The notes: generated by a model not told the origin, from the letters alone. Positions 1,207 through 61,706 are shown, counted from the first letter of the stretch. The stretch: DNA of 64,000 nucleotides from an uncultured Nitrososphaeraceae archaeon (GCA_963729045.1 CAVSMN010000020.1:1-64000); one strand, 5' to 3'. Numbers and translations are program-made.

Positions 1207-1256
1207 AAATAAAAGTAACAGTTCCCATATACCTCATGGATTCGAAGCCCACCGGG
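1207..1256 (+). repeat. att-like repeat, arm family A + tRNA-3'-like core
   Basis: aaataaaagtaacagttcccatatacctcatggattcgaagcccaccggg; matches 4223, 14085, 23856, 45497. Confidence 0.85.
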
Positions 1257-1722
1257 TGTGGGTTTTAGTAAATATACATCAAACAAGCGATTCATATTAA
1301 ATTCTAATCCTAGAAAATAAATGATTCTGCCTACTAGAGTTAGAAATCATTAATTAAATTTAATAATCCAATTCAACACTATTAATTCTAATAAATTCTG
1401 ATTTTATTTCCATAAAAATTATCCTTGTGAATTCAGGTTATAAATTTGCAATATCAAACTAATTATGCTTAACAAAAGTAAAGAGAGAAAATGTAAAAAC
1501 AATAATAGTAGAAAACAAAATATATCTGAAAGGACTTTGCCTCATAGGGGGACCGAACTATATATTCTAAGAATTTCGCAGACCAAGTTGAATCAATTCG
1601 TCTTTTAAATTATTTAAGATAATTAGAAAAAGTTAGTCAAAGGACCAACAAATTTAATCAATGGAACAGTAATAGCGCAATAAATTAGTTGTATAAAAAA
1701 GTCTTTTACTCATTAAAGCAAT

Positions 1723-2112
1723 TTAAAATTTTAATATTTCCAATTGCTTGTATATCGATGCAAAGTTAAGGTATACTCCAATTCTTTTTATTTTGTTCAC
1801 CTTATCAAATTTTATAGAAATTACCCCCATGGTTGAAAATTTTTTACCGCTGGAAGGATTTCCGTTCCACCATCCCAATTGATGACCTTCTACTTCGACC
1901 TCAGAGATAATAAGATTATTGGTGCTATCATCATATAAAATAGTAATCGGAGTTATAAACAAATCAGCAAAGCCTTGAAACAAATCCGATAAAAATTTAC
2001 TCGATTCGTCTTTCCCATGCCAAATTCTATGTCCTACTAAGTCGGCTTCAAAGTTTTCAGAAACCATTGATAAGATGCGATCTGTCTTGTGATTGTTTAA
2101 TTCCAGTATCAA
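1723..2112 (-). CDS. SnoaL/NTF2-like ester cyclase family protein
   Basis: F..L..GFADL, G.H.G.W.G.P.SGKKF and GKI-like C-terminal pattern. Confidence 0.75.
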   Translation of the reverse strand: MILELNNHKTDRILSMVSENFEADLVGHRIWHGKDESSKFLSDLFQGFADLFITPITILYDDSTNNLIISEVEVEGHQLGWWNGNPSSGKKFSTMGVISIKFDKVNKIKRIGVYLNFASIYKQLEILKF

Positions 2113-2291
2113 ATTGGAGAAAGTATTTCTCCTCTTTTTTTCATCGAAAATGTTACTTGAGTATATACCTAATTCTAAGCTATCTGTGTATTAAGTATAA
2201 TATATTAATAATCAAAATTGGCACTAGTAAAACAATCAATTAGTAGCTTTAAATTTTGGATCCTTAAATAATTTGTAGACTATTATATGCC

Positions 2292-2441
2292 ATGAATAAT
2301 TATGAGGTCGATAGTGTGAAAGATTCAGACGAGAATTCAACTAATGTCAAAGCATCGTTCCCTTGCGATAAATGTGACCAAACATTTGGTTCACGGCAAG
2401 AATTAAAAGAGCATGGTATCAGTGCCCATCAATTACTCTAA
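2292..2441 (+). CDS. Small C2H2 zinc-finger protein (49 aa, not in ORF track)
   Basis: MNNYEVDSVKDSDENSTNVKASFPCDKCDQTFGSRQELKEHGISAHQLL*; canonical F-x-CxxC-x3-F-x5-L-xx-H-x4-H. Confidence 0.8.
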   Translation: MNNYEVDSVKDSDENSTNVKASFPCDKCDQTFGSRQELKEHGISAHQLL

Positions 2442-2804
2442 TTTTCTTCACTATCATCTTTGTTTACAACATTTAATAGTTATTACACATATCTTCTTGA
2501 TGATGCAAGCACTGTCTTTTTAAATCGTATCTAAATCCACCCTATTACCATCGGTATAATCTATTGGACCTTATTCCATAACACCCACCATTGACTTTTC
2601 TATTAGATCTTAATTCTTCAGTCTAAATTAACCATCTCCTGAATCTCAAAAAATTATTATTTCATGTAATTCCTCATCGATTAATCTTTAAATCATCAAG
2701 TTTCGGTATAAATCAAATCAAAATCGTTAATTAAGATTAATTCATATCAATATGAGATTACTAAACAAAGATATTATATATGAGAAGAATTATAATTCGC
2801 ATGC

Positions 2805-3224
2805 ATGAATAAAACCAGTTTACTCGCAATTTTAGGTATTGTACTAGCATTCACAACAGCATTGATCTTTGGATCAATAGTGACACCTGCCTCAGCCCAA
2901 GGAAATACGACTGTGACAATGGACAACATGACAGCACCAATGAATAACACGGGCAGTATGAATATGACAATGGACAACATGACAGCACCAATGAATAACA
3001 CGGCAGTATGAATATGACAATGGGCAGCATGAACAGACAATGGATAAGAATGAGCAGTATGAATATGACAATGGAAAATGATACTGTTGTCCAGTAATTG
3101 CGGAATCACAAGTGGGAGAAGGCTCTGACAAGGTGGAGAAGGCTCCCAAGCTGGAGAAGGCTCCGATAGTGGAGAAGGCTCCGATAGTGGAGAAAGTTCC
3201 GATACTGGAGAAAACGAGAATTAA
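2805..3224 (+). CDS. Secreted Met/Asn/Thr-rich repeat protein with acidic GEGSDS tail (frameshifted)
   Basis: Signal peptide ending ASA-Q; tandem MDNMTAPMNNTGSMNMT units; 18-bp ggagaaggctccgatagt repeats at about 3115-3210 ending GENEN* at 3224. Confidence 0.7.
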
Positions 3225-3398
3225 ATAAATTAATTATATCTTTTTCTTTATTGTAAATTTTAAATTCCTGTTGTTTAACTAATTGGCAGTAGAATAAAAC
3301 AGACTAATCATATTATCAAATCCTGAGAGAACCTGAAAACTTTAATTGCAGGTATCATTATAGTTAATGAGTCCTTTTTTAGAAGTGAAAATGCAACG

Positions 3399-3420
3399 AA
3401 ACCCACCGGGCCCGTTTGAT
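3399..3420 (+). repeat. att-like core
   Basis: aaacccaccgggcccgtttgat. Confidence 0.75.
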
Positions 3421-3444
3421 ATCTCTTCATCTTTTAGTTCAGGT

Positions 3445-4080
3445 TCATACAGCAAATAGTGATTTGTTGTTCTTCTTATATTGCTTCACAATCAAGACAG
3501 TATAGAATAGGTCAAAGAAGAAAATGGAAACAAACAAGAACGGTAACACAAATGAACTCTGAGAAACAGGTTCAAATAGATAAAAATGTATGCTTGTTAG
3601 ACCAGTACCAAGCATCTTAAATATAGCTATAAAAATGGATTGACCTCTTAATGTGTTTCCACGTTTAAAGAACATAACTACGAATAGCACAGACATCAGT
3701 AAATTTTGTCCAAAGGCAGCATACACGCCATCAACATCACCAAGAAAGATTCCACCCGACAATATTATACTGAAAGCAGTAGCTACCGAAATTCCAAAAA
3801 CAATACACAGAGTTAGTGAGGATAAATTGGGGAATTCATTCTTATAGTATTTAAAAAACTGGAAGACAATTATTACATCTAGTACAAACCAGAGGTAATT
3901 AATATACAATTGAGGTGGAGAATGAGGTAATAAAAATGAGAATATAAATTCCCAAGAGATGTTTGCACATAATGCTAATAGTGGCATACCATAGGTTTTA
4001 TCTTTATAACCTTTTGAAATTATGAAAATATAAGTAAGGATCCAAAATATTCCGCCCAATATTAGAATAATTGATTGCAT
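3445..4080 (-). CDS. Pyr4/PaxB-like integral membrane terpene cyclase homolog
   Basis: About 7 TM helices; W..TY…KDKTYGMPLLALCANISWEFIF, WFVLD, RGQSIFIA and C-terminal FFDLFY motifs. Confidence 0.75.
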   Translation of the reverse strand: MQSIILILGGIFWILTYIFIISKGYKDKTYGMPLLALCANISWEFIFSFLLPHSPPQLYINYLWFVLDVIIVFQFFKYYKNEFPNLSSLTLCIVFGISVATAFSIILSGGIFLGDVDGVYAAFGQNLLMSVLFVVMFFKRGNTLRGQSIFIAIFKMLGTGLTSIHFYLFEPVSQSSFVLPFLFVSIFFFDLFYTVLIVKQYKKNNKSLFAV

Positions 4081-4222
4081 TTCTTTGTTTATTCTAGGTA
4101 ATAATACCCAAATTTATAAAATTTATCATCTGAATTTCGATATAATAATCATGCTCTGCAACTGAACATAATTTAGACAGGTTCAATTAACTTCATAACA
4201 GGAATCAGATTTTTGCAAAAAT

Positions 4223-4278
4223 AATAAATAAAATAACAGATCCCATATACCTCATGGATTCGAAGCCCACCGGACCCG
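4223..4278 (+). repeat. att-like repeat, arm family A + core
   Basis: aataaataaaataacagatcccatatacctcatggattcgaagcccaccggacccg. Confidence 0.85.
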
Positions 4279-4488
4279 CTGTTATTCTTCATACTTTAAT
4301 TTAACTATAGAATATTCAAATTTCTATAAATGTTATTCTTATTACCTTTAATAGCAGAATATACAAAAATTTATAAAATCTATACTACTTCATATAATTA
4401 TTTTAAAGAAATGAACAAGTTATGAGGATTTTGTAAAGCTATCACAAAGACTTAAATAAAACGATTACCATATGTTATTGTGGTTTAA

Positions 4489-4959
4489 ATGCAGTTAATA
4501 ACAATGAAACACAAAAGCAGTGAAATACAACAAACAAAGCAGTCACATATGCTAAATCTATTTAGAATACACAAGAAAACAATAACCATAGGCGTAACAA
4601 TGATATCAACTATTCTAATTATCGGGTATCTCCTGAATAATATTTCATCGCCTAATGCAACCATGGGGCCTATCCTTGGTTCATTACCAGCATATGACAA
4701 TGGTCTAGGAGCTGTGAACGGATATGCATTTACATCAACAGGATTACCAGCTCTTGGAACGATTGTGATAGCCGCAGGACAAAGTGGTTTGGCTAAAACA
4801 GTAAGTGCAGACTTAACACAAGAAGGAAAGTATGTATTTCAAGATTTGAATCCAGGAAAATATAACATAGTAGCATATTTCCCTGATGGTGAATATAGAG
4901 TATTGAATAACATACAAGTAGAACCCAATTCAGTACAGACATTAATTTTTAAATATTAA
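4489..4959 (+). CDS. Membrane-anchored protein with carboxypeptidase-regulatory-like (Cna-B) domain
   Basis: N-terminal TM; GKYVFQDLNPGKYNIVA motif. Confidence 0.7.
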   Translation: MQLITMKHKSSEIQQTKQSHMLNLFRIHKKTITIGVTMISTILIIGYLLNNISSPNATMGPILGSLPAYDNGLGAVNGYAFTSTGLPALGTIVIAAGQSGLAKTVSADLTQEGKYVFQDLNPGKYNIVAYFPDGEYRVLNNIQVEPNSVQTLIFKY

Positions 4960-5248
4960 TTTTTTTGTTTTGTATAAGACTAACTTTAAATGATAAATCG
5001 TGTTCATTCAATTCGACAAACGAGTTTTAATGAGTTATTAACATAGTATTTAGATATACCCATGAAATTGATTGATAATAAATTCCTACGGATATTTCAA
5101 AAGAAATTTAATTTTAGTCACGATTTATTTCATTCACCTAAGTGTTAAAATTTTAAAACCTTTTTCAAAGTAACAGGATGTAATACTAATCGCAATAGGG
5201 CCAAATTATTCTAATTATCTCAACCTAATATTTATTATATTACACTTG

Positions 5249-5275
5249 CCATATGCCCCATGGATTCGAAGCCAT
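5249..5275 (+). repeat. Degenerate att-like repeat, family A
   Basis: ccatatgccccatggattcgaagccat. Confidence 0.65.
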
Positions 5276-5328
5276 TGAATTCATATTATTTTATTATTCT
5301 GAAGATTAATAGCTTTTTTGAAGAATTT

Positions 5329-5393
5329 GGACTCATAATATATCTATTACTAAACCCACCGGGCCCGGTGTAATTTTACTACTTTATTAGGAC
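5329..5393 (+). repeat. att-like repeat, arm family C + core + downstream arm
   Basis: ggactcataatatatctattactaaacccaccgggcccggtgtaattttactactttattaggac; near-identical to 8142-8205. Confidence 0.85.
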
Positions 5394-5468
5394 AGTAAAC
5401 AGAAGTAAGAAAATCTCACCTGTGCTATTCGTTATTCAAGGTTTCAACCATTCTATATAAAATCACGT

Positions 5469-5747
5469 TTAATTTAGTAGATATTTTGAGTGTAATTTTG
5501 AAGTTGAAGGGGCGGCATCATCAACTGGAAATTGCGATGTTTCAGTGTCATTTCTACAATCAAAGTAATCAGGATTTAACCCATCAAGTAAAAATGTCCA
5601 GTTATCAGGGCAGGTTTCGATCGTTGCTTTAGCATCATCGGGAGTGATAGTCATACTAACCATTATTGCTAATACTATGATCGTTGTCACCGAGATGGAG
5701 ATTGCTTTACGGTGTTTGTTTTTATTTTTGAGATTTGATATTCTCAT
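5469..5747 (-). CDS. Small secreted hypothetical protein
   Basis: Basic N-terminus, hydrophobic segment, Cys pair. Confidence 0.55.
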   Translation of the reverse strand: MRISNLKNKNKHRKAISISVTTIIVLAIMVSMTITPDDAKATIETCPDNWTFLLDGLNPDYFDCRNDTETSQFPVDDAAPSTSKLHSKYLLN

Positions 5748-6671
5748 ACCGGTCTCTATTACAAATAATCATATTGAAATTGCTAACTAATTCTAATACT
5801 CTAATACTCTTGTAATTTGAGAAAATTACTAGACTTTTTGTGTATTCATTTTACAAACATTAAAGGTCCAATCACTTTATTTGAACCCTCTCTTTAAAGT
5901 AGTATAATTTGAAATGTAACCAATGAGCGTGAAAAACTGAGATCATATCTGATATAGGTGGTCAAACTACTTTCTCATGCACAATAAAGAGAACCATTTT
6001 GACAAAACAACACTACGAAAAATAATTTTCGATGATTAAGGAATCTGAATTGGAGGGTAATAGAAGCATCATCCTCAGACTTCATTATACCATTGCATCT
6101 AGATGTTCCAACGCAATCACCATCCACCATTTTGATCCTTAATGCAGGGATCGATAGCCAATAAGTCGCTTGAAACATCCTGTGTAATTACTCTCATTTG
6201 AAAGGGTTTACCTAAACGCTATAAAATATTATCATATACAAGATGGTCATTGTTACAAATTGTCGCAGGGGAATGCGTTTCACGTCCACTAATAGTTACT
6301 ATAACCGCACCGTAAGGTGAGATGCAAGAATTATCCTGGCGAGGAAGAGGATTAACCATACTTCGAGTAATCTCTAATCGTTTTCCCTTGATGATCAGTT
6401 GAGGCCTGTCCTTTTGAATCCAGTTCCATTTTTTGGCTAATAGAACTTGATACGTTTTATAAGACAGGACAGTCTTTCAGATGCTCTCCTCAAAAAGACA
6501 AACCTGAAAAGTACAAATACATACCATAATTAACGTATTTTTGAGGGGTTCTATTTCCGGTATTCATAAATGGAATAAGATGTCTTCAAAGTATAGTCTT
6601 ATCGTTAACTGAACAGAGCCAATCAGGGCCACTAACGACTTAGTACAATATGTTAATAACATTCATTCTTG

Positions 6672-7088
6672 TCAATTGAATAGTTCTAAATTTTTATCGA
6701 TATAGGGTAACAATTCATTTTCTATAATATCTTTAACGTTGGCATCAATGTCAAATGATACTAAGAGATAGAATTTAGTCTGAGCTTGAAGATTTTCCTC
6801 CATTATAACTGGAACTGTGGCGTATCAGCCCATCATATGTTCCGATAGAGTGTTTAAACTTACCCAGTTTGTTTACAAAGTCTTCTCTTGTTGCAGCTCT
6901 CGTACTGTCTGCATTGCATAATTTTCGGTCTCTTCACTTGTCATGAGTGGTATTAACTTCTCTATGTACGATGTGACCAACAAGGTACCCAAATTGTTCA
7001 CTACTCCTACAAATCTAATCGACTTGTTTAGGTTCATTATCTCATTGCATATTCGTTTGAAATGACCGGAAGTTGTGTGAGATGACAT
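6672..7088 (-). pseudogene. DUF6659 / roadblock-like thaumarchaeal protein, frameshifted
   Basis: IMNLNKSIRFVGVVNNLG…PLMTSEE; C-terminus FYLLVSFDIDANVKDIIENELLPYI lies in another frame; paralog of 21635. Confidence 0.7.
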
Positions 7089-7307
7089 ATGGAACTTAAA
7101 TAAATAAAGACAATACAACTATTTATTCAGTAGATCTCTTTCATAATTGCGACACCATTTTTTTACTTTGTGTGGCTCAGTGGTAGTTTTATCCGCATGA
7201 TTTCCACCCGTACCGATATACGTTACTAACGGATAAACTTCTAGAGTAGTATTTGCCTATTGGTTTGTCCGTTTAATATCACTATAAATTTAATTCATTA
7301 AACTAAT

Positions 7308-7344
7308 AGAACCCATCTAAAGGGATTGATATCGTCCCGAAGTC
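7308..7344 (+). repeat. Truncated att-like repeat, arm family B
   Basis: agaacccatctaaagggattgatatcgtcccgaagtc; resembles 21155 and 22271. Confidence 0.65.
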
Positions 7345-7392
7345 TGTAATAAATCTATTGTTCGATCTTCAAAATACTTCAGATCGAGTCTT

Positions 7393-7824
7393 TTATTCTG
7401 TTCTTAGGCCGTAGGAACGTGCATCATAATGATCAATATCCTTCGTACTCATAAGGAAACTAAAACCTTCTGTAGAGCCTGGTTCCATTGTAGAAAGTGG
7501 AGATGTAATGGACCTGGTTGTATCCTCTATTGTTTTGTTTAGTGGATCAAATAAGATAATATCTACTTTGACATCTTTTACGTTTTCAGTTGAATTGTTT
7601 AAAATAATCCCATCTATACCAGTCAAGCCCGTAGGGCTTTCGATAACTGTTATGTTCGATATAGATAGGTTTATTCTATCAGGTAATGGTGGGACTGATC
7701 CTACTGGCCCCTGTTGCAGCTGTGCATAAACAACGGGAAGAGATATTGCAAATAAGATTATGAATAATGCGGAAATTGTTAAATTGCTAATTTTTTGTAC
7801 GATAGTATATTTATGATAATTCAT
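7393..7824 (-). CDS. Secreted FxLYD-domain protein
   Basis: Signal peptide; G.I.NNS…V.V.IILFD…MEPGSTEGFSF pattern. Confidence 0.7.
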   Translation of the reverse strand: MNYHKYTIVQKISNLTISALFIILFAISLPVVYAQLQQGPVGSVPPLPDRINLSISNITVIESPTGLTGIDGIILNNSTENVKDVKVDIILFDPLNKTIEDTTRSITSPLSTMEPGSTEGFSFLMSTKDIDHYDARSYGLRTE

Positions 7825-8141
7825 CTTATTGATATTTATTATTTAATAGCAGGGGCAAAATAAACATTCTTGGGTTTTTTGTTATCATCTTTTAAATATC
7901 ATTATTTTTGATGATGAATGAGTATACCTAAGGGTGTTATACCTAAATTGATTTATTGCTTTTGTTTTATTAAAGGACAGATCTCTTGTTTAATTATCAA
8001 AAACAGTTTTATTGATCTTGATTCTTCTCTGACCTGCCCTTAATAATTAATCTTTTGAAATCGTAGATATGAATTACAGTAAATATGGTCTCAGATCGAT
8101 ATATAACAACGAGTTCATATCTTTTTCAAACCTGAAATTCA

Positions 8142-8205
8142 GACTCGTAATATATCTATTACTAAACCCACCAGGCCCGTTGTAAATTTACTACTTTATT
8201 AGGAC
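8142..8205 (+). repeat. att-like repeat, arm family C + core + downstream arm
   Basis: gactcgtaatatatctattactaaacccaccaggcccgttgtaaatttactactttattaggac. Confidence 0.85.
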
Positions 8206-8875
8206 TCAATAATTAAAGAGTGATAAAATATTGGTTGGAAATAAAATTACAATATAAAAAAGAACGTGCAGGAATAGAAGAGAAAAGGGAGAATGAACAG
8301 GAAAATAATGATGATACATATTTGCCGTTTTGTGAAACTAGCAAAACAAACGCAAAGAGAATTTGATTTTGTTAATAAACATATTGCGTTCCGTGATGCA
8401 ATCTTGATGTGCTGAGCCAGATCAAATTTTGCATATAAGTTAGAAGGGCAGAGCCGAAATTATTCGCCAGTGACTATCCCCTTATGTGACAGTAAAAATG
8501 TTGTCTCCAGACAACGACAGTATAAAGAATGTAGGGATTTTTAACGCAGAAAATTCGATGGCTAGAAACGATGATGGTCTAATTGTAAAACCTCTATTTT
8601 CAAGAATACCTTTTCTAATTTTTTAATGCTTTTGAAGCTTTTTGACCTATATTATTATAGACATAAACAGTATCAATGTTTCTAACAAGAAAAATGGTAT
8701 GCAATTGGGTAAATGATTCTGCAAATAACTTCATTTCTAATGTCCCATTATATTTAGGATACTAACGTTATATGAGATATATGAGATATATGAGATACTA
8801 TCTAGAGAATGTAACCATTAATATGCGGACACTTCAATATGTTTAAATTGGTTATTTTAGAGTTTGGATATCAAG

Positions 8876-9447
8876 TCATTCAGAGCCAACCATAACAACT
8901 GAAGTTTCGTTAGTTAAGGTGTCAAACGCAGGGGAAAACTTTTTTCCAATTTCATATAGTTCATTTATTTGCTCCTTTGATGCAGTATTACTATTGATTT
9001 TGAGATTTACTCTAAACTGCTGGGCCCCGGGTCTAACACTGAATCTATGCCTGTAAAACCACGCAAATTAACATCGCCTTCTACATCAACGTTAATGCTA
9101 TCAATAAGGATACCCCTTGATGTAGCATGAACTACTATAGTTTGTATTAAACATGCAGCTAAATTACCCATACGGACCTCACAAAAAGTGGGACCGCTTC
9201 CTTCACCTGAAAATTGAATGGGAAAATCGTAATCCATTTTATATTCTGCATTCCTTTCCATAGTTCTACCACCAAGGCTAAAATTTTTGGAACTGGATGT
9301 AACACCTAAACCACCATTCCAATTCGATTTTACATAAAACGTTGTTGTTGTCATTGCAGAAGGATTATTCTGAAGAGACTCATACATGGTTTTCAGCATT
9401 TGTGTATTTACCTTATTAATTCGAGTATCGTTTGAACAATCATTCAT
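8876..9447 (-). CDS. OsmC family protein (frameshift near 3' end)
   Basis: D.P..FSGEGSGPT…LAACL…RGI.ID…VEGDVNLRGFTGI; tail KFSPAFDTLTN in a shifted frame. Confidence 0.8.
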
Positions 9448-9609
9448 TTAATTACTACAAGAAATACGAGATAATATTCTTTATTGAATAAATAGAAGAA
9501 ATAACATGGGATTAACATAGTAAATGCACTAGCCATATCTCATACTTTATGAGTAGTGAACTATATGTTATCTTTGGACCTTCTGTTAATCTGTGTCTTT
9601 TCTTTTTAT

Positions 9610-10607: not shown

Positions 10608-10683
10608 TTGACAGATCCCATTTGATGACTATTATTGATTTACCTAAAAAATCAATCTTATTAATAACTAAATTAGTATGTAT

Positions 10684-11310: not shown

Positions 11311-11466
11311 TTAATACATTTTCCAAACTACATATATTTTATTAACATAATGTCGACAAGGTCTATAACCATTTAAAGCTTCATGTTTTGCTCCTAAAGA
11401 TATTAGAATATTAGAGTATTGCAGTTTGTTAGCAAATCCCATATATTTTATTGATACAGGAAAAAT

Positions 11467-13768: not shown

Positions 13769-14084
13769 TTTATTTGTAATCTAAACTACTAGATCCCGTG
13801 TTTATGTCTTTTGTATTATGATCTCGCGGGCGTAATTTACATTATATTTATTAAAAAAATTGGATTTCTAAAAGATATTTAATTATAATTATGTATATTA
13901 TATTGTTCACCACATTGACATTTTTGAATTGTTACGAGAATCTTTTATTTACAAATGCTCCTTCAATGATGGCAAATCTAAAATTATTGTAAATGCGTAT
14001 TTCTTATTCAAGACATTAAGGAGAAAACATTAGAATACAATGAACGTATTATATGTCAGATATAAGAGATAAAATTATTTAATC

Positions 14085-14123
14085 AACAGTTCTGATGTAC
14101 CTCATGGATTCGAAGCCCACCGG
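14085..14123 (+). repeat. att-like repeat, arm family A + core
   Basis: aacagttctgatgtacctcatggattcgaagcccaccgg. Confidence 0.85.
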
Positions 14124-14347
14124 TTGAGGTTCGGGTATTTATCGTTTGAGCCTGAAGTTATTAAATTAAGGCATACGTAAAATACAATAAGGATAAATGT
14201 TAACTAGTCTTAAAGAAGTTCTAATTTACTTTATTTTTTAGATTTTATAAATGACAGGCAAAGTAATATCTTATTTTAGTTGAACGGATCATAATCATAA
14301 TCTTGTTTTACCGACGAATCTTAATAACAAATAGAATTCCAATATAG

Positions 14348-15419: not shown

Positions 15420-15490
15420 CAATACCATCAATTGTTTTGGACAATAATCAGTTGATATTAATTATTAAATGCTGAGCGGTTACCGCTAGA

Positions 15491-18627: not shown

Positions 18628-18816
18628 TGTCAAAAAACTTAAAAGCCCTTGATTCTCTTGATTCTAAATCAAAGAATTATATTCTAATGGATTTGTAGTC
18701 TACTGTATTCTTGTTGCAACGTACGTTCCTATCTATTTCTTTTAGAGAACTTCCAATGGAATATATTCATAGGACCGGTCATACGGATCTGATAATTCGC
18801 GACTACTCATAGATTT

Positions 18817-21154: not shown

Positions 21155-21207
21155 TAGAATCTACATTAAAGGACCGATATCGTCCTGAAGCCCACTGGGC
21201 CCATTGT
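21155..21207 (+). repeat. att-like repeat, arm family B + core
   Basis: agaatctacattaaaggaccgatatcgtcctgaagcccactgggcccattgt. Confidence 0.85.
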
Positions 21208-21209
21208 CT

Positions 21210-22012: not shown

Positions 22013-22270
22013 AAATTATAAATGAAAAATACCAGCATTTATGCATCATGAAGAGAATAGATACTTAATTAATGAGGGTCCGAAATAAAGTGTTTGTTGA
22101 AAGGAAACTAGTGATCTTGATTCTCGGAACTTTAATTTTTAATTCGAATTATTTCGTAGTAAATGATGGTAAATTGTTTCTATACGACTTCAATTTGTTT
22201 TCAAGGAATTGAAGGATCACAAAAATCATCTTCAATCTTAACAATATTTGACCCACTTAATATGTGAAAT

Positions 22271-22324
22271 AGAATCCACAGTAAAGGACTGATATCGTCC
22301 TGAAGCCCACTGGGGCCGTTTGAT
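22271..22324 (+). repeat. att-like repeat, arm family B + core
   Basis: agaatccacagtaaaggactgatatcgtcctgaagcccactggggccgtttgat. Confidence 0.85.
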
Positions 22325-22857: not shown

Positions 22858-23855
22858 ATAAAGACTAATTTAATATATTCAGAAAATTAATATAATGATT
22901 CTGATTCTTTTGATTCCTTGATATTTGTATTTTATCCTGTATGCCCTAAATTAATTCAAATTAAACATGACATACAAGTAGTTTATTTCGGTATACTTTC
23001 CATGGACGGTAGGGATTTGAAGTCCACTGTAGTATTTAATATCTATATTTTGACTTATAATACTAAAGAAATAGAGATTTATTTTTTCTTCTTACAAACT
23101 TTAAGAGACTAAAAGTTATGGAAAGAAATTACCGCAATCTTGATTTATTTTCTGAAATGAACGCAAAAGTTATTTCAATTTAGGATAATTATTGCAATTT
23201 TTAGAAAATCTCTATTTACTAAGGTTTTTTTATTGTCGAATCAAAAATGATATCTTATAAAATGTTATCAATATTAACGTGAATGATATTTTGTACAATT
23301 ATGATCCCAGGCGGTAGAAGAGGTCTTGAAACCATAGTATTTGTTATTCACCAGAATATGATACTCCATAAGACTTGCTTTATTTGTTGGGAATTATGAC
23401 CCAGCCTGATATAACTAATATACTAAAGCCAAATCATTACATAATATTATAAGGCATGGATGGTACATAGGGTTGTGAGACAAAGATTTTCATTAGGAAA
23501 TAATTGTGAATGTATGTGTCATGGCAAACCCGGTATTGTAGATTTTTGTGGATACTGTACTACATCTCATAGAAATGTGTTCTCCAGAAATAGGACACAA
23601 AGATAACCATATTTTTGCATTAGTAAAGCCAATGTTCTCATTATTCAATATAGAATTGATCTCTTTCATATGCTTATAAATGACTAACAACCAATAAATT
23701 ACTTTAATCCTTCACCACCTAATTTATTATTATGAAACTAGCCCTATAACCAATTCACAATCGTGTTAAAACCCATCATCGCGATAGAATCAATCCCCAA
23801 CGGCCCCTCTCATCACAAATCATACTTTCATTTAACCAAATCATCAAGTTCAAAC

Positions 23856-23911
23856 AATAAATAAAAGTAACGGATCCCATGTACCTCATGGCTTCGAAGC
23901 CCATAGAATTC
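23856..23911 (+). repeat. att-like repeat, arm family A
   Basis: aataaataaaagtaacggatcccatgtacctcatggcttcgaagcccatagaattc. Confidence 0.85.
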
Positions 23912-23919
23912 TTAATCTA

Positions 23920-24250
23920 TAGTACGTCCCCATGTAATCCTTTTAGAGAACTTCCATGACTTAGATTTTCCATACGCTGTTAGAAATCAAATTTCTTATC
24001 TATGCGAGTTGTCATTCAAAGATATTCTAATTGAAAAGCAATAAGGTCTCAAAGGTTTTGTTTCTTATGATAGTAGTAATTTGGGATCCTATTACGCATA
24101 ATGCCTTAGACCTCTCATGCTTTTGCTTCCAACTGATGGTAAAGTTACGACATGATCGTAGCCTTATTTCACCTCATTTGGATTATCACAGAATGTTATC
24201 AGTGTATACTTCATATAATGAAACTCAAGACAAGTATTGTCACACCTAAT
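23920..24250 (-). repeat. Degraded coding remnant shared with about 42150-42450 and 18720-18775
   Basis: Collinear blocks ttttagagaac, gcaataagg, ttatgatagta, agacc(t)tctcatgcttttg, catgat(c/t)gta(g/a)ccttat. Confidence 0.7.
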
Positions 24251-28570: not shown

Positions 28571-29410
28571 ATATTTTAAAATTACTAATTTTAAGATCCC
28601 TTTATGATTTGAATATATGTGGGATAAATTATTTCAAGTAGTTAAGAATTTTATTTTTAAAATCTATCAATTTTTAGATTAAATAAACAAATTAAGAATG
28701 ATCTATAAATTTTAAAAAAAGTTGATGTGTAAAAATGTTAAGATATCATAGCTGCAATTGTGATCAATTTTACTGAACTATTGAATTTGTAGAAAGCATA
28801 TAATAAATAGTGAATTACTCCCAGATCTGTGACTCTTTCCACTGAACCCATAAAAGCAAGATTCTGCTTTAACAATGAACCAAAAAAATATTTATATCAC
28901 TCCCCGCTATAATAATAGTAGAATCTCTAATAAAGAACCTTTATCGACATAAATTCCACTCCCCTCGCCTTAGCCGTGGTTTTTTATGATTATTTCAAAC
29001 ACATCCGAAACAAAAAAAGACATAGAGAATTGAATGAACCTACTTAAACGCGTTCGAACAATGAACAAAATCCAAGTGATATTTATCAAATCATAGACGA
29101 TGCCAAATTTGTCAAATATTCATCGAATGGAAAGATGGTTTTAGATGTCCATGTTGTCAATATAAACTGAGAACCAAACCTCGAAATAAAAAATTCAAAA
29201 TAGATATCGTAAAGAAATGAATAAAAAAGAGACAACAGTGAGTGCTTTAGTCTAGACAAGTACCAAATAAAAGTTGATAAATGTTAGCAATTACTAGATA
29301 TGTCGGAAATAGATTATGTCGACAGAAGTTTCATCTAATAAATATTGCCCAATAGTAACAATAATTCCCAAATCGGACTACTATTACAATCTCTTTTACC
29401 ATTTGTAGCA

Positions 29411-29439
29411 GGATTCGAAGCACTGGGCTTGTTTGATAT

Positions 29440-29440: not shown

Positions 29441-31800
<2,360 letters not shown>

Positions 31801-34186: not shown

Positions 34187-34967
34187 TGATAGTATTGTAT
34201 CTTAGAACAATTTATCCATTCCCGTATAACTAAATATCTAATTACGATGAACTTTATATCAACTTGCAGTTATTGTTCATCTTATAAAATCAAAATACAA
34301 TTAAAAACATTAATTTTCGACCTTTTATTTTTTATATATGATAGTATGTATTAAAAACTAACTTATTGTTACATTATATGGAATATCAAACTATTACAAT
34401 AAATCAAAAATGCATTCTAATCCAGAATCCTTTAATTTACGTTATTGCAGGCACTTTGATGAATTCGAAAATTATTGCCACAATCGTAATTATTCAATGC
34501 TTGCAGGCTTTACAGCCTTAGTCGGTCAAATATCTCAACAGGTTTCTGCCACCAGCATGGTATTTGTGATAGCAAAGGGTGAGTGGTCAAGGAGCTGAAC
34601 ATTGTAACTTTGGAGATTGTAAGGTAATAATTACACCAAGTGGTCAAATAAACTCAAATAGCAAGTGCCGATAATACCTACAATAATCAACAATTGTATG
34701 TATAACTTTTTTTTATTACACTAAAATTAAAATTGGGTTAGAGTAATTATCAAGATATTTTATTATCGTTTTTGTGCCTGTAAATATAAGATTTCAGTAT
34801 TTGACAATATGATGAAAACAAAAGGTCAGAATATAAATAAGTTATATTAGTAATAAAATCAAATATTCTCAGGTTATCAATCCATTCACCGGACTGACTC
34901 CAGTTATAAAAACCTGTTAAACCCATGTGGATATCCTCATGATTTTACCGAACCCGTCATAGTATAC

Positions 34968-35005
34968 GGGACTTAAGCCCACCGGACCCATTGTAATTTA
35001 CTATT
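34968..35005 (+). repeat. att-like core + downstream arm
   Basis: gggacttaagcccaccggacccattgtaatttactatt. Confidence 0.75.
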
Positions 35006-35128
35006 TATCAAAAAAACTAGGCAAACGTAAACATATTATCAACTACCGGAGGAGAGATAACATTATGTGATACTATTATTCAGAGACTAATTTTAAATGC
35101 AATGAGGATTAATTAAATTAGATATTAT

Positions 35129-35569: not shown

Positions 35570-35768
35570 AAAAATAAAACCATTGCTTTTTGAAGTAAAT
35601 ATAAAATTAATAATATTTACTAGATAAATCAACCTATTCTAAAGTATCGACATCATCTCGAAGTATCGAGATAAATTATATCTATATCTTTGTAGATATC
35701 CGCTATAAATCGATTAGTATTATCCATCCCAAAATTAAAGATAATCGTTAAATTTGAATTTGTATTAG

Positions 35769-36831: not shown

Positions 36832-36942
36832 TCTTCAGCCGCTTCCAAACGAATTATGTGCGGTCAAAATAGTAAAAAAGCAATTTCTTTTGTAAGGTCG
36901 ATTTTATCGGATTGTGTAATAATCAGCAAAACTAAAAAAGAT

Positions 36943-36987
36943 AAGGACTTATATCGTCCTGAAGTCCACCAAACCTGTTATAATTTT
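36943..36987 (+). repeat. att-like repeat, arm family B
   Basis: aaggacttatatcgtcctgaagtccaccaaacctgttataatttt. Confidence 0.75.
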
Positions 36988-37047
36988 GCTGTTATATTAT
37001 AAAATTACTAAATAGGTTTCTTTGAATAAATATTTATTTAATTAATT

Positions 37048-37091
37048 AACAGTTCATATATACCGCGTGGATTTGAAGTCCACTGAGCCAG
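37048..37091 (+). repeat. att-like repeat, arm family A
   Basis: aacagttcatatataccgcgtggatttgaagtccactgagccag; T-stem gtgga/tccac pairs. Confidence 0.75.
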
Positions 37092-37387
37092 ATACCCATT
37101 CTAGTACCGACATTAATATTCTCTCGATTGCGCTTTATCTGACTTATAATGAATCCAACATCTTCTTGAATAATGGAAAATTATAAAAATAATTTTCTAG
37201 AAAAACTATAATCAGTGTGGTAAACATTTCCATCAATGATAGTTCCAGTTCTGATTTGTCCTACTTCATAATTTCCTGCTCCAAAAGTTATTTGCACTCT
37301 CAATACGAGATTATCCATCACCGATATTTAGGATTCATATTTACTTCATTTATATAAATTTTAATTATACATGATCAATATGTCAAT

Positions 37388-42110: not shown

Positions 42111-42623
42111 CTAAATATTGTAAAATCAATCTACTTTTATATAAACTGCAGTTCCCCTTCAATTCTTTTAGAGAACATCTATAAATGGATTTTCTATATC
42201 CTTGTCAGACATTAAATGTGTTGTACATCTGTAAGTTATCATTCAAGACAACTTTTTTTGAAAGGCAATAAGGTTTCAATAAAGGCCTTGTTTTTTATGA
42301 TAGTACTTAGCATCACTATTATATAGCATGCCTCAGACCTTCTCATGCTTTTGTTTTCCTACTGGCGGTAAACTTATGGCATGATTGTAACCTTATCACA
42401 CCTTATATAGAAAACAACCGATTCTTAACGACTCGGTGTGTCCACATAAGGTAGAGTATTTTATATAACATAGTATTTAACCCCTAATCATTTGGTGCAT
42501 CTTTTAATGTATCATTGAAATTTGAAAGTTTGAAAAAGTTAGACCCAGGTAAATGTCACTAATATTATTTGTATATTATTCACTTATCCATCAAGGCTTG
42601 GTGTCTAACGATGTAAAAAACTT

Positions 42624-42914: not shown

Positions 42915-43189
42915 AATAATAAGTGTGTGCTACGCTTAAATTCTTATCTTTGTAACTTGATCAAGGTATTACAATCGAGAAGAATAATAGGCCAAAATGA
43001 GATATATATCTTGTTTCAACCGATCGTGTTGTGATTTCTATCAATGAAATATTAATAGAATTTATGCAACTGTAATATAGTGTCATAATCTCAAATGAAA
43101 ACTAAACAATTTCTAATAGCATTCTAAATATTATTGAATACTCATAATCAATATACAATGATAATTCTTATGAGAAAGATTTTGAGTTT

Positions 43190-43229
43190 AGGCTCGGAAT
43201 ATATCTACTACTAAACCCACCAGGTCCGT
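43190..43229 (+). repeat. att-like repeat, arm family C + core
   Basis: aggctcggaatatatctactactaaacccaccaggtccgt. Confidence 0.8.
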
Positions 43230-43498
43230 CTCATAATTGATCCAAATCATGGCCCGATGTGCATTTTAATATTTTTTAATTCGATGATTATTTCCCTCTG
43301 ACAGATAAATGTATAATGTATGGCATATGTTTCTCTATATTCTGTTTTATTTTTTAATTTATGGTCATACAATATACACCAGATCGTTAATTACATCAAT
43401 CTAAAAGACATATAATTACAAATCTACAAAAATAGCAGCTCAGATAGAAATGTTATCCAATAGACAATATTGGAAATAAAAGGATTGTTTATTTCTTT

Positions 43499-45496: not shown

Positions 45497-45560
45497 AAAA
45501 TAAAGTAGCAGATCACATATACCTACTAGATTCCAAGCCCACTAGGCTTGCTGCAAATTT
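45497..45560 (+). repeat. att-like repeat, arm family A
   Basis: aaaataaagtagcagatcacatatacctactagattccaagcccactaggcttgctgcaaattt. Confidence 0.75.
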
Positions 45561-47094: not shown

Positions 47095-47130
47095 GTGGGT
47101 TCGTATCAATTATTAAAACCACCGGGCCAG
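47095..47130 (+). repeat. att-like core preceded by a 5' T-stem-like GTGGGTTCG
   Basis: gtgggttcg-tatcaattatt-aaaaccaccgggccag. Confidence 0.6.
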
Positions 47131-47727
47131 CAATTCATTTTAGTAACTATTTTTTGACATATATGTGTCTTAATGCAAACTAAAAATCCACTTATTAAAT
47201 AATGGTATTAGTATGAGATTTTTAAGAAACTTGGAACGAATCTCATATTATATTATCTACCCACATTTCATTAAAAAACGGAAATCAGAAGATAAGTTTA
47301 CTATCCTTACTAGGTGATTGTCTTTGGGATACAGATTAAGTATGAATTACCATCTACTGATGTCTGTGCTAGAGAATTATTGTCTGTATTTTCCTGACCC
47401 TATTATGCCTCCTATTGGGGAGTTGGCATTATTGGTGACTCATCTCCTATCCATATAAGGAAAGAGATTTGGGATATGTATGAATTATCTGCAATCATCA
47501 AGTATGAATCATACAAAGGAAAAAGGCCATTATATCTTTATTATGGAATTTGGACGCAAGATCTCAAGACATTGCGTTACTAAAATTTAACAAATATAAT
47601 TAAATGAAAAGTACGGAGAAATCATTGATTGACTTTATCCTAGAAATAAAGTTTTTAGAACGATAAGAAAACACAAGATAGGTAAAACAAATACATGAGA
47701 TAAATCATAAATTAACATTGTATTTGG

Positions 47728-49694: not shown

Positions 49695-50232
49695 ACAGTC
49701 TGTATAAATATCGACCTTATAACCTTAGCTTCAAGAAAACACCAATGGTTGCTCATTTGTGTTGTGTGTGTGCTAGTCTAAATAGGACCGAATCAAAATG
49801 GTGGAATACAGTACGAGAATTATAGTTATCAAGCCCAAGAGAATCAAAGAGTTCTAATAAATTCGGATCCACAGTAATCGAGTCCTGCTTTAGTGGATGA
49901 TAATACATCAGAAACCACCTAGCCCGTTATATACTACCATATCATTTTAAATGAGTCTTAAATGAATTCTCTATCAATAGGCAGCCAAAATTGGGATTTA
50001 ATCTTATCCTGATTTTGCCTAGAATTTCATATTGCATAATTTTTAGTGTTCAACTATAGATAGCAAATAATAAATCAATTAAGATATAAATTAGATGGTA
50101 AATTGACAGAAAGCAAAGAGAGGCACTTGTCTTGGCATTAGCTGAAAAGGGGAAAAATTGTAGAGAAATCACGAAAGAGTTATTGGGGTTTCCAAACACA
50201 ATCAAGACAGTCACTGGAACGTGTAGTTTACC

Positions 50233-52090: not shown

Positions 52091-52135
52091 TGACATTTCG
52101 ACTCGTAATATTATTTACTGCTAAACTCACCAGCA
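52091..52135 (+). repeat. Degenerate att-like repeat, arm family C
   Basis: tgacatttcgactcgtaatattatttactgctaaactcaccagca. Confidence 0.65.
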
Positions 52136-52205
52136 TCGTCAACTATCTTAGTAACATCGTTTAATAAGATTGAAAGGATAGTATTTTCCTGAATTTGACT
52201 CTTAT

Positions 52206-59795: not shown

Positions 59796-59924
59796 TGCTT
59801 TATTATTATTGTATAAATATTTAAGAATAATTAGTATTATGGTTATTGGTAATCTAATTAGAAATAGTACGATATCATGCGATTTCTACATTAATGAATT
59901 TTCAAATACAGGCATGATAATGGC

Positions 59925-59960
59925 AGAATCCACATTAAAGGACCGATATTGTCTTGAAGG
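59925..59960 (+). repeat. Truncated att-like repeat, arm family B
   Basis: agaatccacattaaaggaccgatattgtcttgaagg. Confidence 0.75.
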
Positions 59961-60117
59961 CAATTGTTAAGGATGAGGAGCTAATCCATTATAGATGATA
60001 AAGACAGATCATAATAAAATTTGTACGATGTTGCAACTACAATTTTTCAACTAAAATTTTACTTCTATCAAGTTAACCTTTGAATACAATAGTTTTTGAG
60101 AGGATTCATTGATTCAA

Positions 60118-60441
60118 TCATTTGTCCATACAGGTAGGCAAACTTCCACCATGACTTTCACGGTATTCCTTTAGCAATTGATCCTTTACATGTAGGGCGT
60201 TTTCCGTAATCAAATAACTAAATCTCCTTGCTTTGCTTATGCAAGGATCTGATAACGATTCTAAAAGAGATTGTTTTAGGTTGGTACTACTTCCAATAAA
60301 TAGAATTTTCATGTTTGCATGAACCTTAAAGACTCCGGGTTTGTCAAGAGTAGTAGTTGCATCGATATTAGAGTGATCAAAATCTAACCATTCGGACCAA
60401 ACATCTCCTCCTTTTTCTTCTTTGTTGTTCATATTCTGCAA
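60118..60441 (-). CDS. Degenerate GIY-YIG-like small protein
   Basis: KPGVFKV…ILFIGSSTNL…LKEYRESHGGSLPTC. Confidence 0.6.
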   Translation of the reverse strand: MQNMNNKEEKGGDVWSEWLDFDHSNIDATTTLDKPGVFKVHANMKILFIGSSTNLKQSLLESLSDPCISKARRFSYLITENALHVKDQLLKEYRESHGGSLPTCMDK

Positions 60442-60957
60442 TTAACTTTAAATGAATACGTATAAAAAGAATTCAAGATTTAATGAAATGTCAAGTCAAG
60501 TTAAAATCTAATCCAAAACATAAACTTCTAATGAGGTTAACAAAAATGTTCTAAAGGCAACATAAACAAATCAATCGTTTGTAGTAGAAACGCAACGGAA
60601 ACCATCCGGCCAGTATCAAACTCGAATAGAAGATACGACTAGTTGATGATTTATAGAAATCTGTTATTTTAAATGAACCTCCTAATGGAACCCACAAGAG
60701 GGAAAGTTTGACCATTTTCCACTAATAACTATTATTGAAATATTAGTTAATCATAATCATAAAGTATCTTTTACAGCTTTAACAACATTAAATGATGAGG
60801 ATAAAGACACAAAAGTTCAAGACATGAAAGCACGTCCTCAAGATTCAACAATATTTATTTTGGTTAGTGCTTCATTCATTCATGTTAAAGAAATGATGTT
60901 AAATGAAGCCATAAAGAAGGAAGGAAATTTTATCTATAAGTATGCAAGTTATCTTTT

Positions 60958-61428
60958 ATGAAAATTATTAGTGCTACTTCCGAAATTCCTAGTATGACCA
61001 AAGAAGAAGCAGAGAAATTTCTTGAAAGTAAATTGAATTTGCAGTTGGCCACTATCGATGAACAAGGTGATCCAAATATCCAACCTGTCTGGTTTTACTA
61101 TGACAAAGATGGAGAAAAACTCTGGATAAACACTTCTAAATTTGCTAAGAAAACTCAAAATATTCTAAAGAAATCAACTATTTATTTTTCAATAGACGAT
61201 GAAAATCCCCCAGTTAGAGGAGTTAAAGGTAAGGGGGTTGCAACCATAATAGATGATTTAAAAACAGTCGTTCCACTAGGAGAAAGAATTAGTTTGAAAT
61301 ATCTTGGTACGCTAGATCATCCAATAGCAAAAATGATTGCCGAAGATTCAAAGAAGGGAGGAGTTGTACTTGTTGAAATTAGTCCAAAGTTCCTTTCTAC
61401 TTGGGATTATGGTAAAATGCAGTTTTGA
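60958..61428 (+). CDS. Pyridoxamine 5'-phosphate oxidase-like (F420/FMN-binding) protein
   Basis: MTKEE..FL…QLATIDEQGDP.IQPVWFYY…KK..NI…VRGVKGKG…STWDY. Confidence 0.9.
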   Translation: MKIISATSEIPSMTKEEAEKFLESKLNLQLATIDEQGDPNIQPVWFYYDKDGEKLWINTSKFAKKTQNILKKSTIYFSIDDENPPVRGVKGKGVATIIDDLKTVVPLGERISLKYLGTLDHPIAKMIAEDSKKGGVVLVEISPKFLSTWDYGKMQF

Positions 61429-61643
61429 CTTGCTTATGATTAGGTTTGTTCTCTCTTTTGTTTTGGTAATAAAATTCTAGATCAAATATGTCTATTAATG
61501 GATTATATTTGTTAAACTGATCTACCGATCTATAAATATCATCAATAACCGATTTTTGATTGACATTAAAATCCGGATAATTTAACTACTAATTCTTTTT
61601 GGGATAAACCTATCGAAAGATATGATATTAATCTTCTATATTC

Positions 61644-61706
61644 AAAATCCCCACGAGAGGACCGATATAGTCTTGAGGTCTACCGGTCCTACTATAATTT
61701 TACTAC
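61644..61706 (+). repeat. Degenerate att-like repeat, arm family B + downstream arm
   Basis: aaaatccccacgagaggaccgatatagtcttgaggtctaccggtcctactataattttactac. Confidence 0.7.

Follow-up and report, generated by a model that had tools for sequence, protein, structure and literature searches.

The first 64 kb of a contig from an uncultured Nitrososphaeraceae archaeon (G000:C20:1-64000, starting at the contig's first base; this whole stretch is called the window) are crossed by a series of short repeats in one orientation. The repeats resemble attachment (att) sites, their core corresponds to the 3' end of a tRNA-Arg(TCG) gene, and small sets of unrelated genes lie between them. In relatives of the same genus such repeats make up a genomic island headed by the intact tRNA gene, and in three of these a tyrosine integrase gene adjoins the tRNA. 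The source genome, G000, comprises 2.85 Mb on 22 contigs with about 33% G+C and is 87% complete.

Gene content and att sites of the window

Pfam matches were obtained for 41 of the 71 window open reading frames (ORFs) scanned, 17 on the plus and 24 on the minus strand; no recombinase or transposase was among them. The cargo includes a methyltransferase, SnoaL, a Pyr4-like terpene cyclase, a multicopper oxidase, MarC, an NHL propeller, an FMN reductase and a muconolactone isomerase, furthermore ArsR, PspA, PNPOx (twice), endonuclease V, MsrB, RibD_C, UPF0060 (twice) and a TPR protein, and finally GSDH, a CLC channel, OsmC, DUF899, TMEM175 and an alpha/beta hydrolase. Among the genes, the luciferase-like, 2OG, halogenase-like, GSDH and CLC ones are truncated or split. 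ORFs of at least 100 aa cover a fraction of 0.427 of the window, the second lowest value among 32 tiles, versus a genome median of 0.669. Most of the units between att sites measure 0.1-8 kb and are devoid of an integrase.

The 13-nt core, CCCACCGGGCCCG, has ten matches with up to two mismatches in the window, compared with 0.03 expected from shuffled sequence. Nine of the ten lie on the plus strand, and the single match on the minus strand is a palindromic overlap at 5360-5372. By repeat finding and by reading the sequence we arrived at a total of 26 att sites, all of them on the plus strand (Table 1). A preliminary description of the window, made from its sequence, had listed 23 positions and placed all copies on the plus strand between unrelated gene sets. 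A copy (arm and/or core) was read at each of these positions, the uniform orientation held for 26/26 sites, and the diversity of the Pfam matches agrees with the separation of unrelated genes; sites at 18684, 28919 and, weakly, 35623 are additional. The number of mismatches to the 17-nt tRNA tail, GAAGCCCACCGGGCCCG, ranges from 1 to 12 across the sites. Copies that are exact or differ at one or two positions are found at 3402, 4266, 5355, 8167, 21191 and 22306, while at 5271, 7343, 23900 and 59960 the arm is preserved yet the core is cut short.

Three conserved types of arm, A (AACAGWTCCCATATACCTCATGGATTCGAAG), B (TAGAATCYACAnTAAAGGACCGATATCGTCCTGAAG) and C (GACTCRTAATATATCTATTACTAAA), precede the core on its 5' side, and recurring left-end arms follow it on the 3' side. 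Among the latter are P'1 (TTGTAAATTTACTACTTTATTAGGAC), P'2 (GAATTCTTAAT..GTACGTCCCC..TTTTAGAGAAC) and P'4, which in the related genome G032 stands directly 3' of the intact tRNA. Together, arms and core give 40-70 nt of similarity between copies. Profile hidden Markov models (HMMs) of the arms produced 31 matches at E<=1e-3 in the 2.85-Mb genome, 17 of which fall in the window, again all on the plus strand; the window holds 2.2% of the genome's bases. The copies are thus clustered and co-oriented and do not form a random, genome-wide scatter.

The core is the 3' end of tRNA-Arg(TCG)

The core is the last 17 nt of tRNA-Arg(TCG), a sequence identical in G015, G012, G007, G004 and G032. In all five of these same-genus genomes, the 3' end of the intact tRNA gene is the first core of a co-oriented array, and the 17-mer occurs as long one-strand series in genomes of the genus. 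The preliminary description had recognized a tRNA 3' end in the core and guessed at Arg or Lys; the first of the two is borne out. Across the order, the 17-mer is present in one or more copies, with no more than one mismatch, in 85 of 151 genomes, and outside the genus most copies are tRNAs that share the same tail. (This count takes in G136, which is flagged as unpublished; no other claim rests on that genome.)

The window itself yielded no tRNA in a tRNA search or with Rfam, as had been stated before. Elsewhere in G000, contig C6 carries nt 1-43 of tRNA-Arg(TCG) at 100% identity (C6:37740-37782), followed by unrelated DNA, and the flank upstream of the G004 tRNA also matches C6. The tRNA-Arg(TCG) gene thus appears to be present but broken or duplicated by another element, its intact copy being unassembled. 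Behind the tRNA fragment (C6:37740-38720; locus L030 3741-4720) lies a 238-aa ORF that matches PF16795, the archaeal phage integrase of the SSV or suicidal type (E 2.3e-5). This sequence match suggests that the 5' half of the tRNA gene serves another, unlike family of integrases as well, and the ORF may explain why the intact tRNA is unassembled.

The adjoining integrase and its element

In G015, G012 and G007 an ORF of about 450 aa (P0001/P0002 type) begins 64 nt after the tRNA core, which agrees with the earlier expectation of a recombinase next to the site. It opens an element with the gene order integrase (Int), winged-helix protein, Prim-Pol protein of 867-894 aa (PF09250) and cargo, the cargo being of the same kinds as that of the window (GSDH, multicopper oxidase). 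The ends of this element agree in 3/3 genomes with an intact integrase gene: tRNA, core, P'3 arm and Int on the left, and an A arm with an exact 17-nt core 22-33 kb downstream.

At E<=1e-5 the integrase family numbers 1658 relatives; those that carry a name derive from Ca. Nitrosocosmicus and Nitrososphaeraceae and are labelled XerD-like integrases by some sources. Within the genus the family is present in 31 of 34 genomes, often as pseudogenes. Its paralogues appear to neighbour tRNA-Arg(TCG), another tRNA that is probably Arg, tRNA-Lys(CTT) and a tRNA that is probably Lys-TTT. An alignment of 24 sequences has R179, K207, Y295, R298, W320, Y330 and a CxxC..CxxC ribbon as invariant features. 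Matches to the XerA model NF040815 of NCBIfam lie far below the cut-off (E 5.5e-5 and 1.2e-5). The best Foldseek matches of an AlphaFold model are XerA, Cre, XerH, lambda Int and IntI with a probability of about 1, where IntI (2a3v) ranks 26th among general tyrosine-recombinase fold matches. According to the accessible part of PMC8371274, pNOB8-type integrases share the consensus R..YxxR..Y. The present family has R179, Y295-x-x-R298 and Y330 as invariant residues and its att site outside the gene, as in that type. The features of the SSV type were not found, as P0001/P0002 stand whole beside the att site and do not match PF16795. Judged by its sequence, the enzyme is a putative tyrosine recombinase specific to the genus, with the pNOB8-type motif, a length of about 450 aa and a C-terminal zinc ribbon.

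G000 itself holds fragments of the integrase only, namely at C12:357224-356897, where the fragment directly follows an A arm and core, at C18:135201-135732 and in the window, where the fragment sits about 320 bp 3' of the core at 47118. Further fragments are present in G004 (C34, 57671-58166 and 76557-76685). The preliminary description had seen no integrase in the window; this stands for an intact gene, but a pseudogene fragment of about 45 residues is there.

Island architecture, breakpoints and small units in relatives

In four arrays fetched from relatives, 67 of 67 arm-HMM matches are co-oriented with the tRNA. The same applies to every arm match inside the islands of three single-contig genomes, outside of which a few small arm clusters occur. 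The island of G032, at about 970-1133 kb, has 12 A, 7 B and 17 C arms, 36/36 of them on the minus strand. Cargo is highly variable: pieces of window positions 1-20000 are scattered over different contigs in 18/18 same-genus genomes, and the islands of G015 and G012 have only the tRNA, the integrase gene and one 479-bp block in common (at least 75% identity). The latter pair thus underwent near-total cargo turnover, and its overlap is so small that no breakpoints could be scored there.

Breakpoints were scored against the closest relative, G004 (about 90% identity), which is collinear with the window at 47.6-62.7 kb and shuffled relative to it at 1-47 kb. Blocks of at least 84% identity and at least 300 bp shared with G004:C34 were considered, and a block end was counted if it lay within 10 nt of a core. 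Six of 26 block ends did so versus 0.36 expected, and none of 20000 random draws reached six. The expectation of the preliminary description that synteny breaks at the repeats is therefore supported. At base level, homology to G004 begins at the core at 3397 while the arms differ, halts after GAAGCC at 4267, passes between two G004 blocks inside GAAGCCCA at 23898/23903, and halts 7 nt beyond the core at 22324.

An occupied site and its unoccupied counterpart are found at the head of the array. In G004, a unit of 0.85 kb consisting of a P'1 arm, one 155-aa helix-turn-helix (HTH) gene and an A arm is inserted between the tRNA and an integrase pseudogene and is flanked by a perfect 21-nt direct repeat, whereas in G015, G012 and G007 the integrase gene directly follows the tRNA. 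Because this unit lies on the tRNA side of the integrase remnant, it must have arrived later. Homologues of its gene (34-48% identity) occur in four more att-bounded units of about 0.9-1 kb, so that units of this kind are located at G004:C34 56709-57560, 63866-64829 and 83490-84488, at G015:C1 2715245-2716129 and near G015 2663554-2663925. Their only gene encodes about 130-155 aa with a resolvase-type HTH (Pfam HTH_7, E 7e-5), which makes the units candidates for a minimal mobile unit or the gene for a directionality factor.

Arms at other tRNA genes and elsewhere

The arms are combined freely with various left arms and also with other tRNAs' cores. On G000 contig C12 an intron-containing tRNA, which ARAGORN could not name and which is probably Arg-TCT, is followed by 4.2 kb that contain DUF1622 and a patatin gene in split form and in which Pfam finds no integrase; next come an A arm with the local tRNA's own core (C12:357291) and an integrase fragment. 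G004:C13 carries B arms whose core matches the tail of the G000 tRNA at C9:3000, probably Lys-TTT, together with an integrase fragment and a homologue of window positions 1-936. Position 15134 of this contig, considered as a tRNA-Lys gene, was rejected; it is a B arm with the C9:3000-tail core, and no tRNA was found there.

Further groups of A, B and C arms outside the window lie in G000 at C7:166598-177413, C15:195853-197331, C21:82001-83300 and C20:66730-78275, the copy at C20:78228-78275 being inverted and having an exact core. These groups may represent secondary arrays or else belong to the window's island. The tRNA-Ala(GGC) of C7 was dismissed as the head of the C7 copies, as its tail differs from their core.

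Table 1. Att sites and linked features along the window (arm types as defined in the text; core mismatches as counted for each site).
Feature	Position	Strand	Description
att site 1	1212..1260	+	A arm + core GAAGCCCACCGGG, diverging afterwards; arm HMM E 6e-15
att site 2	3388..3436	+	unclassified arm + perfect 13-nt core + P'4 arm (TTTGATATCTCTTC...)
att site 3	4230..4279	+	A arm + core with 1 mismatch
att site 4	5236..5283	+	A arm; core ends early after GAAGCC
att site 5	5324..5393	+	C arm + perfect core + P'1 arm; 70-nt block
att site 6	7308..7349	+	B arm; core ends early after GAAG
att site 7	8136..8205	+	C arm + core (1 mismatch) + P'1 arm
att site 8	14080..14129	+	A arm + core CCCACCGG, diverging afterwards
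att site 9	18684..18755	+	degenerate A-like arm/core + P'2 arm
att site 10	21155..21205	+	B arm + core with 2 mismatches
att site 11	22270..22320	+	B arm + core with 2 mismatches
HTH gene, 80 aa	22615..22857	-	in a 0.7-kb att-bounded unit; N-terminal HTH like that of the relatives' 155-aa HTH gene
att site 12	23010..23035	+	degenerate core GATTTGAAGTCCACTG
att site 13	23864..23957	+	A arm + GAAGCCCA + P'2 arm; G004 homology block changes inside the core
att site 14	28919..28969	+	degenerate B arm + core; arm HMM E 1.5e-5
att site 15	29408..29432	+	degenerate core GGATTCGAAGCACTGGGC
att site 16	34953..35010	+	unclassified arm + core (2 mismatches to the 13-mer) + P'1-like arm
att site 17 (weakest member)	35623..35667	+	B-like arm ending in GAAG; 63%
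att site 18	36929..36979	+	B arm + degenerate core; conserved B+A pair with site 19
att site 19	37043..37093	+	A arm + degenerate core
orphan P'2 arm	42151..42182	+	no recognisable core; matching place in G004 is a B-arm att site
att site 20	43185..43254	+	C arm + core with 2 mismatches
att site 21	45502..45552	+	A arm + degenerate core
att site 22	47103..47131	+	C-like arm + core ACCACCGGGCCAG
tyrosine integrase pseudogene fragment, ~45 residues	47452..47585	+	residues ~143-187 of P0001/P0002 (tblastn); DNA match to the int genes of G012/G015
att site 23	49905..49930	+	degenerate core GAAACCACCTAGCCCG
att site 24	52096..52138	+	C arm + degenerate core; arm HMM E 0.0025
att site 25	59924..59974	+	B arm; core cut short
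att site 26	61643..61711	+	B arm + degenerate core + P'1 arm

Further features of the window

The pair formed by sites 18 and 19 corresponds to positions 1896-2045 in G004. Two paralogous winged-helix genes of about 90 aa (42624-42914 and 49425-49694) each lie 220-300 bp 5' of an att site, and in G015 a 69%-identical copy adjoins a B+A att pair. At 41393-42110 the window has two overlapping UPF0060 (YnfA) ORFs; the corresponding place in G004 is taken by a B-arm att site, and the flanking blocks (39450-40847 and 42149-42542) are otherwise collinear with G004.

Several repeats belong to other classes. A repeat of about 220 bp at 6399-6621 has several to many copies (70-76% identity) in each same-genus genome searched and is also present on G000 C13; it is possibly a miniature inverted-repeat transposable element (MITE) or a small RNA and is unrelated to the att sites. 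A dispersed repeat of about 50-100 bp at 11396-11503 and 45645-45698 recurs twice on G000 C18 and in several relatives, and many metagenome contigs terminate at 11404 and 11449. The stretches 25075-25377 and 35272-35573 are a recent internal duplication inside the island, with 268 nt at 98% identity (plus 37 nt at 86%); the duplication overlaps a PNPOx-like gene at 35129-35569, and G004 homology ends at 25114. Tandem repeats at 2898-3222 (periods about 51 nt and 18 nt) are accompanied by overlapping ORFs on both strands, possibly a gene for a repetitive secreted protein or its remnant. The tract at 30286-31160 consists of poly-A runs of 134, 42 and 187 nt, then C14 and about 360 nt with 2.2% T, and looks like an assembly or sequencing artefact, not biology.

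How the island may have grown

Taken together, our data lead us to propose, with a probability of roughly 0.85, that the window is the body of a genomic island grown by accretion behind tRNA-Arg(TCG) through site-specific integration. This proposal builds on the tRNA origin of the core, the co-orientation of the copies, the adjoining integrase in relatives, the breakpoints at cores and one pair of an empty and an occupied site, all of which were observed directly. Repeated integration at one tRNA-derived site, there of small cargo circles, is also what the preliminary description had put forward; a missing host tRNA, scattered copies in random orientation and breakpoints that ignore the repeats had been named beforehand as findings that would speak against it, and upon checking none of the three was encountered, the matching tRNA being that of the five relatives.

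In the model that we favor, the integrase, borne on an integrative, plasmid-like element of 22-33 kb (Int, winged-helix protein, Prim-Pol), would recombine the element's site with the end of the tRNA gene, its target being the last ~17-21 nt, TCGAAGCCCACCGGGCCCG. This integrase family is thus presumed to act on these arm and core sites. Every insertion would restore the tRNA and add one tail copy downstream of it, which accounts for all copies pointing in the same direction. The arm 5' of a copy (A, B or C) would then represent the right end of the unit on its left, and the arm 3' of it (P'1 to P'4) the left end of the unit that follows. Any two co-oriented cores could recombine, with the intervening units being excised, lost or re-inserted and cargo thereby being shuffled between lineages. 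The small units would be either cut-down full elements or hitch-hikers relying on an integrase from elsewhere; some may be deletion remnants of the integrase-bearing elements of 22-33 kb, and small units may still move, in trans.

A number of observations weigh against growth by accretion behind this tRNA. None of the 34 tRNAs of G000 detected with the Rfam tRNA model (ARAGORN alone found 23) ends in the core, the best having 4 mismatches in 22 in this 87% complete assembly, and no intact integrase gene is present in the assembly either, so that the link between window and tRNA is drawn from relatives and shared arms. The integrase ORF has no Pfam, PHROG or PDB-sequence match, the AlphaFold model has a mean predicted local distance difference test score (pLDDT) of 70, and TM-scores of just 0.2-0.35 mean that its Foldseek similarity to known recombinases is weak. 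Twenty of the 26 block ends lie away from cores, many of them in the collinear part at 47.6-62.7 kb. From one end of the array to the other, core quality shows no clear trend (rho 0.32, p 0.11), and the arrangement 'newest next to the tRNA' thus finds no support here. Both G000 and G004 are assembled in multiple contigs, where repeats could have led to a wrong order of units, and the artefact-like tract at 30286-31160 warns of local assembly error. Finally, soil and rhizosphere metagenomes, examined as Logan contigs, revealed neither an excised circle nor an empty site; these contigs contain at most a share of 0.38 of the stretch, and their joints are ambiguous. The joints 1248->8143, 1242->5325, 4266->8141, 1252->17651 and 1128->4234 were rejected as evidence for excision, as their sides measure 20-32 nt and they link repeat copy to repeat copy, as any repeat would; likewise, the loose ends at 1216, 5323, 8135-8139 and 8167-8171 coincide with edges of repeats and were discarded as signs of excision.

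With its integrase fragments, degenerate cores, many broken cargo genes and low coding density, the array of G000 looks largely fossil. One could go further and assume that each unit is what remains of a full integrase-bearing element that was inserted once and trimmed by deletion, in which case the small units would be immobile and the arms conserved by descent from a few element families. The integrase fragments located after some cores on C20, C12 and G004:C34 are in line with this idea, as are the A arm at the right end of the 22-33 kb element in 3/3 genomes, the window-like cargo of full elements, the degenerate state of the window's cores, and the part at 47.6-62.7 kb, which must have been inherited vertically because it is collinear with G004 and has att sites at the same places. 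However, a search of the window with 84 ORFs from the first elements of three genomes uncovered one integrase fragment only and no remnant of the Prim-Pol or winged-helix gene. Moreover, the five one-gene units of G004 and G015 (about 0.9-1 kb), which contain one diverged copy of the HTH gene apiece, look like a family of minimal units and not like random deletions, the 0.85-kb unit of G004 with its perfect direct repeat arrived after the integrase remnant, and the free pairing of arms with different left arms and other tRNA cores is hard to reconcile with mere descent. A purely fossil origin of all units therefore appears to us somewhat less likely than not.

Explanations that dispense with an integrase fare much worse. 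Arms plus core are similar enough over 40-70 nt to invite ordinary homologous recombination between repeats of 50-70 nt, and mis-assembly might mimic it, considering that G000 and G004 are draft assemblies and that metagenome contigs end or switch at repeat edges, as they do at any repeat. Yet homology starts or stops within the 13-17-nt core where the arms differ (3397, 4267, 23898/23903), and 13-17 nt are too short for efficient homologous exchange. Since, in addition, three single-contig genomes have the same architecture and an integrase gene stands at the head of the array, an origin without a site-specific enzyme is highly improbable. It is even harder to believe that a short tRNA-derived repeat, akin to MITEs, repetitive extragenic palindromic (REP) sequences or short interspersed nuclear elements (SINEs), spread by itself through an ordinary chromosome. 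Such a repeat would fit the arm copies outside the island on G000 C7, C8, C10, C15, C17 and C21 and those of G032 near 648, 780-796, 1366, 1834, 2217 and 2721 kb, and true dispersed repeats do exist in the window (6399-6621 and 11396-11503). It does not fit 26/26 window copies and all island copies of five relatives running in one direction behind a tRNA, a core that changes to suit the local tRNA in other arrays, between-genome homology that breaks inside the core, and repeat units that, as read from the sequence, are surrounded by neither terminal inverted repeats nor target-site duplications. The least credible proposal is that the repeats serve the island genes as functional RNAs or transcription signals (terminators, promoters or small RNAs). 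Their intergenic position, the small hairpin in the B arm (GGAC..GTCC) and the partly palindromic core would agree with it, but a scan of the window matched no Rfam family, six sites folded as single-stranded DNA gave z values of -1.5 to +0.5 relative to shuffles, with no extended hairpin, and genes on both strands accompany copies of one orientation.

Proceeding from growth by accretion, it is tempting to speculate that the genus possesses a tRNA-anchored platform for gene capture, comparable to an integron in operation but of another nature. Its cassettes would be small and integrase-less, the smallest measuring about 0.9 kb and holding one HTH gene; they would have standard ends (A/B/C on the right, P'1 to P'4 on the left), would be excised as circles and would be re-inserted at any copy of the tRNA tail by an integrase acting in trans from the Prim-Pol plasmid-like element; the arms could be re-targeted to several tRNAs with a GGGCCCG acceptor end. 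We offer this scheme tentatively, as a possibility that deserves consideration. If it is true, the platform would build hypervariable islands of 60-160 kb in which a large part of the soil ammonia oxidisers' accessory genome resides.

The genus consists of soil ammonia-oxidising archaea with unusually large and variable genomes, in which the gain of accessory genes is poorly known. The accretion model supplies a concrete mechanism and place, with one tRNA gene, one integrase family and a few standard ends for a region of 60-160 kb. Island cargo differs almost wholly between species, as seen with G015 and G012, and redox, metal, stress and membrane functions are of the kinds from which niche differences could arise. 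In metagenome bins, att core and arms can serve as markers of flexible islands.

Comparison with known systems

No published description of this island was found in the literature searched, in which subscription journals are mostly lacking. Integrons, including those reported for archaea, are platforms where a tyrosine recombinase stacks small units in one orientation, each closed by a recombination site. Like them, the island has co-oriented sites and small cargo units, and the order of units differs between relatives. By contrast, its sites are double-strand copies of a tRNA tail with arms instead of folded attC sites, the platform is a tRNA gene and not attI, genes occur on both strands, and the integrase is carried by a mobile replicative element. 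With sites devoid of attC-like folding and genes on both strands, the island is not an integron. The preliminary description had likened it to one, and this holds as an analogy only, because attC folding and one-orientation cassettes, the defining features that were looked for, were absent.

In streptococcal islands of the ICESt1/ICESt3 type, cis-mobilisable elements (CIMEs) arise by accretion and mobilisation: att-bounded units lacking an integrase stand in tandem with an integrase-bearing element at the 3' end of a gene, and CIMEs are in principle movable by the integrase of a neighbour. Comparable arrangements are the order tRNA, core, 0.85 kb, A arm, core and integrase pseudogene in G004, and tRNA, 4.2 kb, A arm, core and integrase fragment on G000 C12. 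Unlike CIMEs, which are bacterial, conjugative and few per site, the island has dozens of units, its replicative element is archaeal and of the Prim-Pol kind, and genes for conjugation were not observed.

Integrated elements of Thaumarchaeota often reside in tRNA genes with short att sites, and arrays due to re-use of a site by tyrosine recombinases have been noted (PMC6563490, in its accessible part). Dozens of integrase-less units with conserved arms are not among the elements described in the accessible parts of PMC6563490 and PMC8371274. The name 'Nitrosocosmicus' is absent from the main text of PMC6563490 as far as accessible, and islands flanked by integrases are mentioned for one species only in the accessible part of PMC13245735. 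The present case adds the putative cognate integrase element, the arm families and a scale that spans a genus.

The closest parallel may be the tycheposons of Prochlorococcus. As the available portion of the preprint describes them, they combine a tyrosine recombinase, a small replication module (primase/helicase) and cargo at the 3' part of specific tRNA genes; in their islands newcomers push older elements inward, leaving partial tRNAs, fragmented integrases and degenerate elements, and the cargo relates to niche or stress (bioRxiv 10.1101/2020.12.28.424599). Measured against that description, the present element likewise joins recombinase, replication genes and cargo behind tRNA-Arg(TCG), which is intact in relatives and has no intact copy in G000. 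Differences from the system so described are the archaeal host, an integrase that looks unrelated (pNOB8-type motif, zinc ribbon; tycheposon integrases were compared by description only), the denser seams (26 in 62 kb here, about 36 arm matches in about 163 kb in G032) and three conserved arm families that recur on units without an integrase. Excision has been demonstrated for tycheposons, whereas the island is known from sequence alone. By analogy, the island probably works like tycheposon islands or by CIME-type accretion, which would carry the 'tycheposon' way of building genomes over from marine cyanobacteria to archaea.

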